DNA of 64,000 nucleotides from positions 2,961,546 to 3,025,545 of the forward strand of contig OZ244620.1 of the NCBI GenBank assembly GCA_965218395.1, given 5' to 3'. Below the pieces are notes generated by a model. It did not search any database. It was not told the origin of the DNA and saw only the letters and a program-made list of their open reading frames with translations. The stretch's first letter is position 1. The number at the start of each line of letters is the position of its first letter. Shown here piece after piece: positions 24,862 to 63,879 of this stretch. The stretch comes from an uncultured Candidatus Binatia bacterium. Lineage in GTDB: Bacteria; Desulfobacterota; Binatia; Bin18. The position numbers and the translations under genes are program-made.

Positions 24862-25368
24862 TCAGGCCGCATCCGTCGGACCGGATGCGGCCGGCGACGG
24901 AAACCAGCGCGGGGTGGCCGCCTGATAGGCCACATAGTCCTCGCCAAACCGTTTTCTCAGGGCAGGCTCCTCACTATGCAGCACGAGGGTGCGACTGACC
25001 AGCAGCAGCAACAGGGTATAGAGCAGGACGGGGACGGATGGAAACCAGACGATTTGGCCACCCAGCAGGGCAAACAGGCCGACCAGCATGGGATGCTGAA
25101 TACGGGCATACGGGCCGGCAACGACCATGCGCTGGGGTGGGTCGAGTGGGAACGGAGTGCCGACGCCGCGTCGGACAAGATAATACGCCGCCGCAAAGAG
25201 TAGGGCTCCTCCAGCCAGGCAGAGCAGGAAGCCGAGCAGGGAAAACACAACCGAGAAGGGCAGCGGTGGCGCCGCCTCAAGGGGCCGCAGTTTCCAGGGC
25301 AGATAGCCGACCAGGAAGCCGGGAATGACAAGCGTGTACACCGTAGCGCGGAGCCGGAGAGACAGCAT
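24862..25368 (-). CDS. Isoprenylcysteine carboxyl methyltransferase (ICMT/PEMT) family membrane methyltransferase
   Basis: GPYARIQHPMLVG motif and a C-terminal ...EE..L...FG..Y..Y pattern. Polytopic membrane protein. Confidence 0.7.
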   Translation of the reverse strand: MLSLRLRATVYTLVIPGFLVGYLPWKLRPLEAAPPLPFSVVFSLLGFLLCLAGGALLFAAAYYLVRRGVGTPFPLDPPQRMVVAGPYARIQHPMLVGLFALLGGQIVWFPSVPVLLYTLLLLLVSRTLVLHSEEPALRKRFGEDYVAYQAATPRWFPSPAASGPTDAA

Positions 25369-37003: not shown

Positions 37004-37615
37004 ATGGCTAGCGTAGAATTCTTTTACGATTACTCCAGCCCGTGGACCTATCTGGCGTTCACGAAAATCGAGGGGCTGTGCCGCAAATACAACGCGGATC
37101 TTCAGTGGCGTCCGTTTCTGGTGGGCGGGGTGTTCAATACGGTCAATCCTTCGGTGTATGAATTCCGAGAAAAGGGGGTGCCGGCCAAGCAGCACTATAC
37201 GGCCAAAGATATGAGTGACTGGGCGCGCTACTATGGCCTGAAAATTATCATGCCCCCCTCCGTTTTCCCGGTGAATTCGGTCAAGGCGCTGCGGGGCGCA
37301 TTGGTCGCGCTCGAACATCCCGGCACGTTTCTGCCCTATAGCTATCGGGTGTTTGAAACCTACTGGGGCGAGGATCAGGATATCAGTCAGGATGAGGTGT
37401 TGCGAAAAATCGTCGCAGCGGTCGGCCTCGATGGAGAGGAATACTTCGACAAGATCAAACGTCAGGACTACAAGGATCGGATTCGAGCCAACACGGACGC
37501 GGTGATCGAACGCGGCGGCTTCGGGACGCCGACGATCTATGTCAACGGCGACTCCATGTTTTTCGGGAATGACCGGCTGGTCTTGGTTGAGGAAGAATTA
37601 AAACGCAGTGCGTAG
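37004..37615 (+). CDS. 2-hydroxychromene-2-carboxylate isomerase / DsbA-like (kappa-GST) family protein
   Basis: MASVEFFYDYSSPWTYLAF N-terminus with Ser in the active-site position. 203 aa. Confidence 0.8.
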   Translation: MASVEFFYDYSSPWTYLAFTKIEGLCRKYNADLQWRPFLVGGVFNTVNPSVYEFREKGVPAKQHYTAKDMSDWARYYGLKIIMPPSVFPVNSVKALRGALVALEHPGTFLPYSYRVFETYWGEDQDISQDEVLRKIVAAVGLDGEEYFDKIKRQDYKDRIRANTDAVIERGGFGTPTIYVNGDSMFFGNDRLVLVEEELKRSA

Positions 37616-37641
37616 CCGAGCTGGGCGAAAAGGACACGCAA

Positions 37642-37676
37642 AAGAGGGCAGCCATCATAGCTGCCCTCTTTATGGT
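37642..37676. terminator. Bidirectional rho-independent terminator (AAGAGGGCAGC-CATCATA-GCTGCCCTCTT, then T-rich)
   Basis: Perfect 11-bp stem between the convergent HCCA-isomerase and ferredoxin genes, flanked by A-rich and T-rich runs. Confidence 0.7.
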
Positions 37677-55138: not shown

Positions 55139-55222
<84 letters not shown>

Positions 55223-55265: not shown

Positions 55266-55331
55266 CTGGGATGCTGATACAACAGACCGCCTGTTTCAGC
55301 GTATGAGTCTGCTTTCCCAAGGAGCGAGTTG

Positions 55332-58604
<3,273 letters not shown>

Positions 58605-58654
58605 ACGGTTGACGCTCCTTTACGTCAGACTGCGATAAATACACCGCTTGATTA

Positions 58655-58691
58655 TTTCTCCTTACCCGCATAGGTTTTTTGTAAGGAGAAA
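58655..58691 (+). promoter_or_regulatory. 10-bp perfect inverted repeat TTTCTCCTTA-N17-TAAGGAGAAA overlapping the vapB RBS
   Basis: The 3' arm contains the AAGGAG Shine-Dalgarno of vapB. Candidate operator or RBS-sequestering hairpin. Confidence 0.3.
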
Positions 58692-58695
58692 CATC

Positions 58696-58947
58696 ATGGT
58701 GGTAAAGATCACATCAAAGCGACAGGTCACATTCCCGGCGAGGGTGCTGGACGCGCTCGGGGTAGGTCCCGGCGACCAACTCGAACTGGAAGAAGGCCCT
58801 GACGGCTTCATTTTACGCCCGCGACGGATAGATTTGTCTCGGCTCGGGGGGCTTCGCGACAAGATTCCACCCGGACATCCGCCGTTCGACATCCGCAAGT
58901 TCCGGGACCAGCGGGAACAAGGACATGGCCCTGCACTACGGTATTGA
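58696..58947 (+). CDS. vapB: AbrB/MazE/SpoVT-type antitoxin VapB
   Basis: MVVKITSKRQVTFPARVLDALGVGPGDQLELEE swapped-hairpin domain. Confidence 0.75.
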   Translation: MVVKITSKRQVTFPARVLDALGVGPGDQLELEEGPDGFILRPRRIDLSRLGGLRDKIPPGHPPFDIRKFRDQREQGHGPALRY

Positions 58948-59320
58948 TACCTCGGTGCTCGTACGGCTGCTCACCGGCGAGCCTCCCGACGCATTTGCGC
59001 ACTGTGTGGAACGACTGAATGCGCTCGTTGTCAGCGGCGCGGAGATATTCGCGTCGAATCAGGTTATCGGAGAAGCCTACGTCGCGGTCCAGCACCACTA
59101 CCACGTATCTGAGACCGATGCCCGTTCGGAGTTGTCAAGAGCGCTGACCAGCGGTCTGGTTGCCCCTCTCAACGGGCGGGCCGTTATTGAGGCCCTGGAA
59201 GCGTCAGGCGGCCCCGGTCTGTTCGACCGCCTCATCGCTGACGACTATTCCCGCGCTGGTCTAGAAGTCCTGACGCTGGACCGCAAGATGGCTGCCTTGT
59301 CCGATGTCCGGCGTCTGTAG
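58925..59320 (+). CDS. vapC: PIN-domain toxin VapC
   Basis: MALHYGIDTSVLVRLL N-terminal acidic PIN motif. Overlaps vapB by 23 nt. Confidence 0.8.
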   Translation: MALHYGIDTSVLVRLLTGEPPDAFAHCVERLNALVVSGAEIFASNQVIGEAYVAVQHHYHVSETDARSELSRALTSGLVAPLNGRAVIEALEASGGPGLFDRLIADDYSRAGLEVLTLDRKMAALSDVRRL

Positions 59321-59388
59321 GCCGAGGATTGAGGATGTAGGGAAACACTTTCAGAGTGTGAATGGTTAGCTGAATACTATTGTAGGAG

Positions 59389-60357
59389 GTGTCAGCTTTG
59401 CCGATATTTGACCTGTTCTCGAAACGTCAAAAGAAACTTCGAGGAGAGACTCCTGACGTTTACGTCTACGACGAACTCCCTAATCCTCTTAGGGTACAGA
59501 TTGTTCACATCTGGAGGGATACTCTTGGGAATGATGCACAATATAATGGCGTGGCATACGGTGATTACCGCTACAGATCGGTAAGAGAAGCTTATCGGTT
59601 CATAGTCAATACCTTATGTCACGAATATGGTGTTTTCACTCTACCGGGAACAATGGAGCGTTATGGAGATGGAAATTACGTTGAAGAACTCAGAGATTTC
59701 TTCCTTCAAGAAGAAGATGTCGAAAAGGCCCTTGATGCGGTAGAGTTGTCATTTCTGACCATAGACCGCTTTACGAGAAGCTTGAATTACCTAGAACGAA
59801 GGGATGCGTCAGAGAGAGCAGACCGTGCAACAGAGGAGCTAAATGCTAGGTTCAAGGAGCATGGTGTTGGTTATCAATTTACAAACGGAGAAATTATTCG
59901 TGTCGATTCCGAATTGATTCATTCTGAGGTTGTTCAGCCAGCTCTAAAGCTGCTCAATCAAGAACACTATGCCGGAGCGCAACAGGAGTTCTTAACGGCA
60001 CACGAACACTACCGAAAGGGTGACACGAAAGAAGCCCTCAACGAGTGTCTCAAATCGTTCGAGAGCGTAATGAAGGCGATTTGCGACAAGAGAGGCTGGA
60101 GTTACGCCAATAATGCAACAGCAAACTCTTTAATACAGGTATGTTTTGATAACGGATTGATTCCACCGTTCTGGCAATCACAGTATGCGTCACTAAGAAG
60201 TCTTTTGGAGAGTGGGGTCCCTACTGGACGAAACAAGTTGAGTGGTCACGGTCAAGGCACTACTCCGGTATCCGTGCCAGATCACGTTGTCGCTTATATG
60301 CTGCACATGACGGCATCAGCAATCGTATTTCTAGCCGAAGCTGATGCAAATTTATGA
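59389..60357 (+). CDS. HEPN-domain protein, AbiJ-like (putative abortive-infection/defense)
   Basis: C-terminal R-x5-H motif (RNKLSGH) within a helical HEPN-like region. The local GC is lower than the flanks. A TTG at 59398 after AGGAGG is a likely alternative start. Confidence 0.5.
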   Translation: MSALPIFDLFSKRQKKLRGETPDVYVYDELPNPLRVQIVHIWRDTLGNDAQYNGVAYGDYRYRSVREAYRFIVNTLCHEYGVFTLPGTMERYGDGNYVEELRDFFLQEEDVEKALDAVELSFLTIDRFTRSLNYLERRDASERADRATEELNARFKEHGVGYQFTNGEIIRVDSELIHSEVVQPALKLLNQEHYAGAQQEFLTAHEHYRKGDTKEALNECLKSFESVMKAICDKRGWSYANNATANSLIQVCFDNGLIPPFWQSQYASLRSLLESGVPTGRNKLSGHGQGTTPVSVPDHVVAYMLHMTASAIVFLAEADANL

Positions 60358-60557
60358 TGACGTCAAGAAATTGGGCGATATCGCTTTTCAACTCGGCCTT
60401 GACTTCAGCAGCGAAGTCCACCGGCACCCTCTCACCTTGTTTCGGCCTCTCCGGCTGTGTACATTCCCAGGCCATGTCTCCAGTTGACACCCCGTGGAGG
60501 GCTTTGTAGACTCCTTCCGGTAAAGAGACCGCCCGCCGATTTCCCAGGTCGTGAGGA

Positions 60558-61205
60558 ATGGAGTGTCGCATGTCTTGTTCGTTTCGTAGCGTAGGCTTGG
60601 CCCTGGTCATCGTTACCGCGGGATGTGTCGTGGCCGACCGGCCAGCACGGGCGGAAACTGATGCGGAAGCCGACCTCCAGCCCGGAACGACCTCCTTCGA
60701 TTGTACAACCAGCGCGGTTGATTACCTGGACGATCCGTCCCTCACCCGAGCAGAGAAACTGGCACGTATGGACGTGGCGCTCAGCCAGTCCCTTGACCAA
60801 TTTGAGGCCTGCCACGCCGTGAGCGGCCAGGCTGCCGCCCCCACTCCCGCGGCCGCAGGACAGACGACCCCGGACGCCGCTGCAACGCTCGGAGGAGACC
60901 CGGTTCGGTCGGTCGCGTCATCCGAAATAGCCGGTACCGAGGCCCCGTCGGTCCGCGGCGAATCGGCCCCGTCCACTCCGCCGGCCTCCGTGGCAATGCC
61001 CGTCGCCACGGCGGTGGCTGGGCAGGCGCAAGGACCCCTGCCCAACGGGCGCCTGCCAGCAGACATTCCTGCTGCCGACAACGATAGCGTCCTGGCGGCG
61101 CAGATACGCGAGGCGGCGATGCAGGAAACAGATCCGGAAAAGCGCAAGCGCTTGTGGGAAGAGTATCGCCGCTATAAAGACCGGGGCGTAGCGCAGGAAT
61201 ATTGA
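60558..61205 (+). CDS. Hypothetical lipoprotein with an Ala/Pro-rich linker
   Basis: Lipobox LALVIVTAGC, low-complexity linker, conserved-looking charged C-terminus. Confidence 0.5.
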   Translation: MECRMSCSFRSVGLALVIVTAGCVVADRPARAETDAEADLQPGTTSFDCTTSAVDYLDDPSLTRAEKLARMDVALSQSLDQFEACHAVSGQAAAPTPAAAGQTTPDAAATLGGDPVRSVASSEIAGTEAPSVRGESAPSTPPASVAMPVATAVAGQAQGPLPNGRLPADIPAADNDSVLAAQIREAAMQETDPEKRKRLWEEYRRYKDRGVAQEY

Positions 61206-61243
61206 GCCGACCCGGGAAACTGCCGCACCCATACGGAAGAAAC

Positions 61244-62494
61244 ATGCCGCTATGTAAAAAGTTCATGGTGTACCTCGCCTGTCTTGCCCTTGCGCTGTCG
61301 GGCTGTACGACGCATAGCGGTAGGCTGCCTGGGCCGGGTCGGCCCGCGGTCGGCCCACCACCGTCCTCCTCTCCGCTCCACAAGACGGAGGCTGCACGAG
61401 CGTCCGTCCGCCAGGGGCCGCGATTGGACATTGCTATTCCGGTATTTGATCCGGGGCTGTCGGAGGCTGCCGTCAAGTATGCCGAGCAGGGTGTATGGCC
61501 GGAACTGCGCCGGGCCGAGGCCAACCGCTTCGCCTATAAACTGAAATTGGCACTTGAAGAAACCGAGGTCTTTGGGGCTGTGCGCGTCACCCCCGACGCT
61601 ACCGCGGCCGCGGACTTATATATCCTGGGACGGATCGAGGAGTCGAACGGTGAAACGGTGGCTCTCAACGTGGCCGTCAGCGATATTTCCGGCGCCGAGT
61701 GGTTGAACAAACCCTTTCGCCATACCGTCGGAGCCGGCTTCCATAAGAATAGTCGGAACGCCGGTAAGGACGCCTACGACCCGGTGTTTGAGCGCATTGC
61801 GCGCGCCCTGGTTGAGCAGCTCGACCGCCAGGACCATTCCGCTGCGTGTCTCAAAATGCTGACGGATATGCGCTTTGGTACGAGCCTGGCGGAGGAGGCG
61901 TTTGCTGAACACCTCAAACAGGAGTCTGGTCAATTCGTCCTGGCGGGTTATCCGAGCGATGATGATCCCATGCTGCGGCGCACCAGAGACCTGCGGGTCC
62001 ATGACCAACTGTTCGTCGATGATCTTCAGGACCACTACCGGACCTTCGGGGACGAGATGAACAACAGCTATCTGGTCTGGCAGGAACACAGTCTCGTCGA
62101 GGTCCAGGCCCAACGGGCCGCCAAACGCAAGTCCCTGCTCCAGGGGGTCGGGGGAGCCTTGTTGGTCGGTCTGGCGATTGCCGCCCTCGGCGCCTCCGCG
62201 GCGACCGCATCGCCCATGACGTCGTCGGCTGCGGCAGTGGGAGGGGTGGCGGCAGGGGTGGCTGGTGCGGCCATGATTGCGAAAAGCTTCCAGACGAGTG
62301 CCGAGGCAAAGGTCCACCGGGATGCGCTCAATGAGCTTGGGGAATCTATTGATGTTGAACTCTCACCGCGGGTGGTCGCGTTTGAGAAAGACACTGAAAA
62401 ACTGACTGGCACGGCCAAGGAACAGTTCGGTCAATGGCGCGCATTTCTCCAGAGGATTTACGAGCAGGAGCGAACACCGGAGGTGGAACTCTAA
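61244..62494 (+). CDS. Hypothetical lipoprotein with a C-terminal Ala/Gly-rich hydrophobic segment
   Basis: Lipobox LALALSGC. The mid-region block DIAIPVFDPGLSE..GAVRV is loosely reminiscent of CsgG/LpoB-type lipoproteins. The C-terminal segment may be a TM helix. Confidence 0.5.
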   Translation: MPLCKKFMVYLACLALALSGCTTHSGRLPGPGRPAVGPPPSSSPLHKTEAARASVRQGPRLDIAIPVFDPGLSEAAVKYAEQGVWPELRRAEANRFAYKLKLALEETEVFGAVRVTPDATAAADLYILGRIEESNGETVALNVAVSDISGAEWLNKPFRHTVGAGFHKNSRNAGKDAYDPVFERIARALVEQLDRQDHSAACLKMLTDMRFGTSLAEEAFAEHLKQESGQFVLAGYPSDDDPMLRRTRDLRVHDQLFVDDLQDHYRTFGDEMNNSYLVWQEHSLVEVQAQRAAKRKSLLQGVGGALLVGLAIAALGASAATASPMTSSAAAVGGVAAGVAGAAMIAKSFQTSAEAKVHRDALNELGESIDVELSPRVVAFEKDTEKLTGTAKEQFGQWRAFLQRIYEQERTPEVEL

Positions 62495-62496
62495 CC

Positions 62497-63879
62497 GTGT
62501 ACAGGGTCACGCCGGCCGTCGACCTATTGGCCCTGGGGTTGCAGCTCGCCTTCATTGTTTTTACTCAATCTGCCTCCGCGGACACCGCCCGCGCCACGTC
62601 CGAAGCGGCTGCCCGCCCCGCCGCCTCTTCCGGTTCCGGGCTGAGCGCCAATCCGCAGCCTGCGCACTTCAAGGCGCTGCTGCGTGAGTATGTGGACGAT
62701 ATAGAGCCAGCTATCCAAAGCGAGGCGTTTGGTGCCTGGGACGCCGTTGTCCAACAGGAGGTCGCGGACCTGAAGGCAGCCGCGCTGCAGGCGTTCAGCC
62801 AGGGACAGTATACGGACGCCGTGGTCAAGCTCGGGGCATTAGTTGCCCTCAGCCGCACCGCCCTGCGCGCGCGCGAGGCCGCCTTTACCACGGCACTTTC
62901 CGCGGCGCGCCGACAGAGTGACGCCGACAATTACGAGGCGGCTCTGGTGCAGATCACCGCAGCGCTGCGCATTCGGCCGGACTCAGCGGCTGCGGCGCGG
63001 CTGTACACCAAGATTCAGACCCTACCACAGGTGGTGGCGTATCTGCGCGCGGCCCGGACCGCGGCCGCGGAAAATAATCCAGAGGCGGAACTGCGGGCTC
63101 TGGAGGAAGTCGTGAAGAGAGACCCGGAGCGGCGGGGAGTCCGCGGCCGGGTGGCGACACTTCGCTCGGCCCGCCAGGACGAGCGCTACCGCCGCGCTAT
63201 TACGCGCGGATTGCGGGCGGTAGCGCACGGCGCCCTTGACGCGGCCCGGCAGCATCTGACCGCGGCGCAGCGTCTCTTCTCCGGGCGGGCCGAAACGGCG
63301 CTGCTGGCAGAACAGCTGCGTGCAGCCGAGCGCCACGATCAGGTTGAGCGGCTGCTGGAAACGGCCCGCGCCGCGGTCGCGTCCGACGATTGGGAAGCCG
63401 CGCTCAACGCCTACCGCCAGGCTGAGCAGCGTGCTGCTGGTAGCGCGCCGGCAGTGCAGGGCCGCAAGACGGCGGACCACATTGTGTCTCTCCTCAAGGC
63501 GGTTGACGCCCACCTCGCCGCCGCGCACCGACTGTCTTCACCACACGTGGCGGCGCACGTCCGGACCCTGGTCGCCGAAAGCCTGCGCGTGGGACACGTC
63601 AGCCCGAAACTGGTAGCGCGCACCTCGGAACTCCAACAGGTGCTTGATCGCTATTCCAGACCGATCGCGGTCCGCGTCATCTCCGACGGCAAGACGCGTG
63701 TCTCCGTCAGGGGGGTCGGCCGGGTCGGGAGTGTTGTCTCAAAGGTGATTCATCTCAAGCCGGGTGACTATCGGTTTGAGGGCCGCCGGAGCGGTTATAG
63801 ATCGAAAATCGTCCCGGTCCGGATCTCACCCTCCACGGCCGACGTACAGGTGGCAGTCGTCTGCGATGAGCCAATTTGA
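62497..63879 (+). CDS. Secreted Ala/Arg-rich helical-repeat (TPR-like) protein with a C-terminal PEGA-like beta domain
   Basis: GTG start 11 nt after GGAGGTGG and 2 nt after the upstream stop. Signal peptide. C-terminal IAVRVISDGKTRVSVRGVG...GDYRFEGRRSGYRSKIVPV is PEGA-like. Confidence 0.5.
   Translation: MYRVTPAVDLLALGLQLAFIVFTQSASADTARATSEAAARPAASSGSGLSANPQPAHFKALLREYVDDIEPAIQSEAFGAWDAVVQQEVADLKAAALQAFSQGQYTDAVVKLGALVALSRTALRAREAAFTTALSAARRQSDADNYEAALVQITAALRIRPDSAAAARLYTKIQTLPQVVAYLRAARTAAAENNPEAELRALEEVVKRDPERRGVRGRVATLRSARQDERYRRAITRGLRAVAHGALDAARQHLTAAQRLFSGRAETALLAEQLRAAERHDQVERLLETARAAVASDDWEAALNAYRQAEQRAAGSAPAVQGRKTADHIVSLLKAVDAHLAAAHRLSSPHVAAHVRTLVAESLRVGHVSPKLVARTSELQQVLDRYSRPIAVRVISDGKTRVSVRGVGRVGSVVSKVIHLKPGDYRFEGRRSGYRSKIVPVRISPSTADVQVAVVCDEPI

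Follow-up and report, generated by a model that had tools for sequence, protein, structure and literature searches.

We analyzed a window of 64,000 nucleotides (nt) from an uncultured Candidatus Binatia bacterium (GenBank assembly GCA_965218395.1, contig OZ244620.1, positions 2,961,546 to 3,025,545 of the forward strand) and focus here on the segment that directly follows valS, the valyl-tRNA synthetase gene. This segment carries the toxin–antitoxin pair vapBC and, behind it, a gene whose product ends in a HEPN domain (hereafter the HEPN gene). It probably represents about 1.8 kb of accessory DNA in the spacer between valS and nadC, assembled from two independent modules: a putatively autoregulated vapBC operon and a mobile AbiJ-NTD4/HEPN gene with a predicted role in defense.

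Organization of the valS–nadC spacer

The spacer holds vapB, vapC and the HEPN gene in the orientation of valS (Table 1), the layout given by an initial annotation made from the letters of the DNA. The third open reading frame (ORF; stop at 60357) can be opened at GTG 59389, where that annotation had placed its start, to give 322 amino acids (aa). We consider TTG 59398 the most likely start instead, because it lies 8 nt downstream of the Shine-Dalgarno (SD) sequence AGGAGG, because a 100% identical database copy of the protein (P0001) has the same 319 aa that it yields, and because the TTG and its ribosome-binding site (RBS) are kept in five copies at unrelated loci. In the 319-aa protein, the motif RNKLSGH occupies residues 278-284.

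The whole window has a guanine–cytosine (GC) content of 0.601. A local GC drop had been reported across the segment; the drop is real but restricted to the HEPN gene (GC 0.454, and 0.425 at third codon positions, GC3), the composition of vapB (0.599) and vapC (0.616) being host-like. The GC3 of valS is 0.73. A generic scan predicted no terminator between valS and vapB, and neither terminator-like nor promoter-like sites from vapB to the end of the HEPN gene.

Profile searches bear out the assignment of the first two genes as vapB and a PIN-domain vapC. VapB matches PF04014 (MazE_antitoxin/AbrB; 1.1e-10, 41.7 bits against a cut-off of 24.7) over residues 2-44 as well as TIGR01439 (5.7e-9), and the vapB homologues begin with M[VIL]VKITSKRQ at the same ATG. 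VapC matches PF01850 (PIN; 2e-6, 28.8 bits against a cut-off of 23.6), and its four conserved acidic residues, D8, E50, D101 and D119, do not vary among six homologues. Judged by its domains, gene overlap and acidic residues, vapBC is an ordinary type II toxin–antitoxin (TA) operon. Sequence searches of the PDB with all three proteins gave no match.

Table 1. Features of the valS–nadC segment, in positions of the window
Feature	Position	Strand	Description
valS (valyl-tRNA synthetase)	55329-58604	+	1091-aa ORF; housekeeping left border of the accessory segment; stop 58604
Predicted vapBC promoter	58648-58676	+	-35 TTGATT 58648-58653; 17-nt spacer; -10 TAGGTT 58671-58676; predicted start ~58683
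Inverted repeat	58655-58691		core half-sites CCTTAC 58660-58665 and GTAAGG 58681-58686, 21 bp start to start, bracketing the -10
vapB antitoxin	58696-58947	+	ATG, 83 aa; N-terminal AbrB/MazE/SpoVT DNA-binding domain
vapC PIN-domain toxin	58925-59320	+	131 aa; 23-nt overlap with vapB
vapC–HEPN gene spacer	59321-59397	+	SD AGGAGG 59384-59389; last ~28 nt putatively part of the mobile cassette
AbiJ-NTD4 domain (aa 1-188) of the HEPN gene	59398-59961	+	helical bundle and beta-hairpin; predicted sensor/regulatory domain; aa 51-150 most variable
HEPN domain (aa 189-319; Pfam DUF7014 / older Abi_C)	59962-60357	+	catalytic-type motif R278-N279-x4-H284, nt 60229-60249
Right border	60426-60494	+	ancestral leader and opening codons of nadC (ATG 60474); homology to relatives ends thereafter

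Accessory status and recombination

In a ValS search the organism falls nearest to L003, a metagenome-assembled genome labeled Ca. Binatia (81% aa identity), and valS is 87.5% identical at the nucleotide level to that of L083 and L084, two closer metagenomic relatives from the same sample. L003 has the order valS-nadC-birA-coaX and no insert, so the segment is not a core locus shared by all relatives; it was such a core locus, with a housekeeping function, that the initial annotation had named as speaking against its reading. L083 and L084 both have the order valS, relB/parE, vapBC, HEPN gene, nadC. The RelB-like/ParE pair between valS and vapB is intact in L083 (7127-7559), and in L084 (8890-9214) its parE is cut to a 49-aa ORF; the window has 27 nt (58619-58645) in place of the pair.

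The nadC leader is common to L003, L083 and the window, which places the insert's right border close to 60426. The nadC frame of the window is broken after about 5-7 codons (about 60489-60494), and nadC, birA and coaX are not present anywhere in the 64 kb. The stop of nadC homology, together with the absence of these three genes, points to a rearrangement or deletion breakpoint directly after the segment. Compared across these genomes, the valS–nadC spacer is a small accretion hotspot in which accessory content varies at a fixed site. The initial annotation had spoken of a defense-type patch, or island. TA and HEPN genes are indeed clustered here, but there are three genes only, and the flanks give no PADLOC match. 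Past the breakpoint, the window carries three co-oriented genes (60558-63879; 215, 430 and 481 aa) with lipoprotein-like N-termini and GC up to 0.70, for which no Pfam or PADLOC family was found above threshold.

The segment is a mosaic. The 5' end of vapB, and the 3' end of vapC with the spacer behind it, are about 100% identical to L083 and L084, whereas the middle of vapBC (58800-59216) shares 42-70% nucleotide identity with them, and the synonymous divergence (dS) of vapC is 1.4 against 0.48 for valS. Residues 51-150 of the HEPN-gene protein (59550-59830) are 90% identical to L083 and 58% identical in aa to L084. The occurrence of blocks both more and less similar than the housekeeping flank indicates recombination with other alleles. 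The vapC–HEPN spacer is 97% identical in the three genomes and belongs to one such block (59217-59400).

Several candidate features of the segment were considered and set aside. A conserved non-coding RNA or operator in the vapC–HEPN spacer was rejected, since the recombination block explains the identity; the fold is unremarkable (z = 0.14), and Rfam gave no match. The tRNA-Leu(CAG) gene at 55139-55222 was rejected as an integration site because valS intervenes and the tRNA-valS block is conserved in relatives. A minus-strand ORF at 60260-60610 has no family match and spans the nadC leader, and is treated as spurious. Finally, a 20-nt, 85% inverted repeat relates the HEPN-motif codons (60226-60245) to 60428-60447 and raised the possibility of an inverted pseudogene remnant. 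The family hidden Markov model gave no match in six frames, the ancestral nadC leader accounts for the position of the right arm, and in L083 the complementarity is only about 14/20 by our own reading of the alignment; we take the repeat as chance.

The third gene encodes an AbiJ-NTD4/HEPN protein

The HEPN gene is horizontally acquired and, by its profile matches and predicted fold, belongs to the STM4504/CBY_0614 family of predicted phage-defense ribonucleases (RNases). Its product matches AbiJ_NTD4 (PF18863; 7e-24, 85.4 bits against a cut-off of 34) at residues 8-185 and DUF7014 (PF22809; 5e-43, 146.7 bits) at residues 191-318, and it aligns with all 281 positions of the NCBIfam profile NF046078 (STM4504/CBY_0614), scoring 406.5 bits where the cut-off is 150. 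The protein also matches PHROG 20794, a group of unknown function, and Abi_C (PF14355) appears in precomputed annotation for it and for all 120 relatives listed. The AbiJ-NTD4 domain was defined on CBY_0614 by Anantharaman et al. (PMC3710099, Table 2). Since CBY_0614 is the type sequence of this domain, the earlier description of the protein as AbiJ-like proves exact at the family level. The family comprises 2,993 clusters at 50% identity (E <= 1e-3).

We built an AlphaFold2 model from an alignment of 46 relatives (mean predicted local distance difference test score, pLDDT, of 75). The C-terminal half is modeled as a helical bundle with the four-helix up-and-down fold of HEPN domains, and AbiA, LsoA, HEPN toxins, Csm6, HepS, RnlA and AbiV are among the lower-ranked matches in the HEPN fold test. 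The R278-NKLSG-H284 loop connects the last two helices (257-272 and 295-318), which is the canonical place of the HEPN motif. Residues R278, N279, H284, G285 and G287 are 98-99% conserved in 136 diverse representatives, as are E222/S223 and N149/R151/G158. Profile matches, predicted structure and genomic context bear out the initial reading of a HEPN protein with the C-terminal motif RNKLSGH, the loop around the motif being modeled with low confidence.

The ratio of nonsynonymous to synonymous substitution rates (dN/dS) of the HEPN gene is 0.14-0.36 overall, 0.09-0.23 in the HEPN half and 0.38-0.62 over residues 50-150. These ratios indicate that the gene is under purifying selection and that its N-terminal domain evolves faster.

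The HEPN gene as a probable mobile cassette behind other genes

Copies of the HEPN gene that are 66-72% identical to that of the window carry labels that span at least five phyla (Gemmatimonadota, Burkholderiales, Desulfobacterota, Nitrospira and Bacteroidota). At about 46-50% identity, relatives are carried by 339 plasmids, of which 288 are from Escherichia and 300 are conjugative. A relative in the Clostridium phage phiCp-A is a moron between capsid genes, and four viral contigs carry the gene with serine recombinases, Prim-Pol/AAA_25 and Schlafen-AlbA_2 genes and a DUF2971 gene as neighbors. In each of 11 loci that we compared, the gene is lower in GC than the DNA on either side.

Among the homologues, the HEPN gene follows the gene of a Type IIG restriction-modification enzyme at a distance of about 40 nt in both L002 and L085. 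It lies 41 nt after a Type_ISP_C fragment in L099, where the complete gene of the Type ISP methyltransferase is found upstream at a distance of about 2.4 kb, and 57 nt after an unrelated 220-aa gene in L100, where a Type IIG enzyme gene about 1.6 kb upstream heads the co-oriented array. PADLOC confirmed the enzymes of L002 and L100 only (REase_MTase_IIG). HicAB, RES-Xre, AbiEii and AAA_16 genes occur nearby, and an Acinetobacter plasmid carries a relative among RelE/HTH, recombinase and CBASS genes.

Nucleotide homology between the window copy and the copies in L002, L085, L099 and L100 runs from about 25-28 nt before the TTG (59369-59374) to the stop codon, and the gene upstream is on the same strand in 13/13 contexts. 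In the simplest reading, the HEPN gene is a promoterless mobile cassette made of RBS, TTG and ORF, which here would be co-transcribed as the third cistron of the vapBC operon. The vapBC homologues L089-L093 have no HEPN gene nearby, and the pairing of vapBC with the HEPN gene is therefore local rather than obligate. We also considered a conserved downstream partner gene and rejected it, as the ORFs that follow the HEPN gene in L099, L100, L105 and the window are mutually unrelated and without a Pfam match.

Palindromes resembling repetitive extragenic palindromic (REP) elements, GTCGGATTA-N10-TAATCCGAC and variants, flank the HEPN gene on both sides in L002 (9910-10000 and 10950-11070), L085 and L099. 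They occur in loci with a Type IIG/ISP enzyme before the HEPN gene and could be REP elements of the respective lineages or borders of the cassette.

A conserved split repeat brackets the -10 of the predicted vapBC promoter

The inverted repeat upstream of vapB has the arms TTTCTCCTTAC (58655-58665) and GTAAGGAGAAA (58681-58691), which form 11 perfect base pairs (bp) around a 15-nt loop. The initial annotation had reported a perfect 10-bp repeat overlapping the vapB SD; the repeat and the overlap are real, but it has 11 bp. Its right arm includes the SD AAGGAG (58683-58688), 7 nt before the vapB ATG. The repeat exceeds chance: the window contains only three perfect inverted repeats with arms of 11 bp or more and a loop of 3-20 nt, against 0.375 expected from block shuffles, and CCTTAC-N12-18-GTAAGG occurs once in the window and in 0/100 shuffles.

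The other two perfect repeats of this kind lie at 24865-24892 and 37641-37671. One is a GC-rich hairpin, GGCCGCATCCG / CGGATGCGGCC, and the other comes directly after an ORF at 37004-37615 and resembles a terminator, its hairpin having T-rich sequence behind it. The repeat before vapB was itself considered as a terminator of valS and rejected, as no terminator-like site is predicted there, the stem is AT-rich and no U-tract follows it.

CCTTAC...GTAAGG is present upstream of vapB in nine loci; the homologues examined from other metagenomes have 83-48% protein identity and different surroundings. The spacer between the half-sites measures 14-16 nt in the seven closest vapB loci and 17-24 nt in two more distant ones, and one further vapB locus has the halves in reverse order directly after TTGACT. 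A plasmid search for further vapB upstream regions gave two weak matches only. The outer stem, TTTCT/AGAAA, is specific to the lineage of the window: in five independent loci the corresponding nucleotides form Watson-Crick pairs at 6/25 positions, which is the chance level.

The predicted vapBC promoter rests on comparison between loci, a stricter generic scan having called none. The best pair of -35 and -10 hexamers with a 17-nt spacer has the same geometry in six of the seven close loci (the window, L083, L089, L090, L091 and L093): the -35 lies 12 nt ahead of the left half-site, the -10 between the halves, and the predicted start 2 nt inside the right half. Across the seven aligned loci, the -35 never varies at its T and G, nor does the -10 at its first and last T. 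In L093, the whole promoter–operator unit sits 10 nt farther upstream, and the ATG has a separate SD.

Because the half-sites are conserved in sequence and in position relative to the promoter, not to the start codon, we interpret the repeat as a putative VapB operator, to which VapB would bind to repress transcription and which fits the data better than a hairpin sequestering the RBS. An AbrB-type VapB from Salmonella binds inverted repeats over the -10 and -35 (PMC3378870). The initial annotation had offered both possibilities, with the sequestered RBS to the fore; the comparative data favor the operator and disfavor the hairpin.

That the repeat acts mainly as an RNA hairpin hiding the vapB SD, and so controls translation, is in our view unlikely, although the SD does lie within the right arm. 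As RNA, the 11-bp stem is predicted to be stable (-15.5 to -20 kcal/mol, z = -4.0 to -4.7), and the folds of L089 and L090 likewise have extended stems, with some G-U pairs, but L092 (z = 0.12) and L093 (z = -0.31) show no significant fold. The 6-bp cores alone are conserved and never vary, so that there is no covariation, and the outer stem is paired at chance level in the independent loci. In L093, the right half-site is 25 nt from the ATG with its separate SD, whereas the half-sites are fixed relative to the -35/-10 pair. The lack of a predicted terminator between valS and vapB makes a read-through RNA with both arms plausible. With the predicted start inside the right arm, the operon's own mRNA would lack the left arm, and an RBS hairpin would form on valS read-through RNA only. 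With the lineage-specific extension of its stem to 11 bp, the repeat may have a secondary, RBS-sequestering role on such RNA.

Proposed model and alternatives

In the model that we propose, VapB or VapBC would repress its own promoter through the CCTTAC-N15-GTAAGG half-sites flanking the -10, in line with the autorepression and labile VapB described for VapBC (PMC3378870). The right half-site would double as the RBS, the predicted mRNA start lying inside it, and the HEPN gene would be read from the vapBC promoter as third cistron. By analogy with characterized HEPN abortive-infection proteins, the variable N-terminal domain would hold the HEPN RNase in check and sense a phage component; on infection, the R-N-x4-H site would cut RNA and stop the growth of the infected cell. 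The N-terminal domains of AbiJ proteins have been proposed as sensors or intramolecular antitoxins (PMC3710099), and HepS, a single HEPN protein, senses phage directly, with tail tip proteins as its activators (PMC13043305). SadR, an Abi_C protein of Staphylococcus aureus, acts as an RNase and depends on its R/N/H motif for RNase activity and defense alike (PMC13590631).

A number of points weigh against this account. On the side of the defense gene, the PADLOC match is to the candidate family PDC-S32 alone and is partial (PDLC04997, 1.4e-10, residues 10-234 against profile positions 10-209 of 285; PDLC04996, 7e-4), and a scan against the current Pfam gives DUF7014 but, at E <= 1, no match to Abi_C. 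For the motif loop (aa 273-290), the model gives a pLDDT below 50. The Ramlibacter-lineage copies (L101-L106) stand among housekeeping genes with no defense neighbor, the contexts sampled for the HEPN gene are few and not all independent, and we found no experiment in the literature on any member of the NTD4 subfamily. On the side of the operator, the vapBC promoter is weak by consensus (7/12) and was missed by the generic scan, which makes the predicted transcription start uncertain by several nucleotides, and the perfect 11-bp repeat of this lineage with its strong RNA fold is unexplained if only the 6-bp cores matter.

Next to the model, we rate as improbable that the HEPN gene is not anti-phage at all, being instead a selfish addiction or stabilization module of mobile elements or a host RNA-processing enzyme. 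Such a role would suit its greatest abundance on conjugative plasmids (300/339), its position beside recombinases and sometimes among housekeeping genes, and a literature search that gave no published phenotype for the NTD4 subfamily. Yet the gene recurs after Type IIG restriction enzymes and among toxin–antitoxin, Abi and CBASS genes and occurs as a phage moron, its variable part is the N-terminal domain, as fits an arms race, and its nearest tested relatives by domain, SadR and AbiJ, defend against phages (PMC13590631).

Very unlikely, finally, is that vapBC and the HEPN gene form one integrated system, for instance with VapB neutralizing the HEPN RNase or VapC as co-effector: the trio does keep the same order in three related genomes, on one strand, with short gaps and no promoter or terminator predicted between genes, but no HEPN gene lies near the close vapBC homologues (L089-L093), close HEPN homologues stand after Type IIG restriction-modification genes or recombinases, in phage or alone and never with the present vapBC, and the modules differ in GC (0.60-0.62 against 0.45) and in recombination history.

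A further and decidedly speculative extension may be sketched. Promoterless AbiJ-NTD4/HEPN cassettes (a conserved leader of ~28 nt, RBS, TTG and ORF) would plug in behind other defense or mobile-element operons; here, the TA operator would act as a transcriptional fuse, in that infection or host shut-off would deplete the labile VapB, so that the operon is derepressed and more HEPN effector is made, and the lineage-specific 11-bp hairpin would insulate vapBC translation on valS read-through RNA. Should the operon reading hold, a TA promoter would control an abortive-infection effector, which would be a simple link between both kinds of system.

The locus is a clean natural example of how a single housekeeping spacer accumulates small defense and TA modules, with recombination reshuffling them. 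It also draws attention to a very large family for which we found no tested member and which is present on hundreds of E. coli conjugative plasmids. For the NTD4 family, the analysis supplies a clear catalytic motif for mutagenesis and identifies the N-terminal domain as fast-evolving.

Comparison with known systems

All parts of the locus belong to known families, and none of their defining features that we tested failed; current understanding is unchanged, and a known picture is filled in. The enteric VapBC of Salmonella LT2 (STM3034/3033), which has vapO operators, resembles the present pair in its AbrB-fold antitoxin, PIN toxin, overlapping genes and promoter inverted repeats (PMC3378870). 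The present VapB and VapC have no detectable sequence similarity to solved or plasmid VapB and VapC. Salmonella has two separate palindromes over the -10 and -35, whereas the repeat described here is a single split palindrome with 21-bp spacing, the right half of which doubles as the SD.

HepS of the Gifsy-1 prophage (PDB 9oik) has no sequence relationship to the present protein and lacks an NTD4 domain. Lactococcus AbiJ and S. aureus SadR share with the present protein an AbiJ/Abi_C-type C-terminal HEPN domain and an R-polar-x(3-5)-H motif and differ from it in the N-terminal domain, which is NTD4 here; a survey of Abi_C proteins found NTD4 in 3/2,815 (PMC13590631). The motif spacer is one residue shorter here, RN+4+H against RN+5+H in SadR.

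The nearest counterpart is the STM4504/CBY_0614 family itself (NF046078; PF18863 with PF22809/PF14355; PHROG 20794), for which functional predictions are in silico only. The present protein has the same two-domain architecture, keeps R-N-x4-H and matches over its full length. We see no structural difference from the family; what sets the present copy apart is that it follows a vapBC operon and that its host is an uncultured bacterium of high GC.

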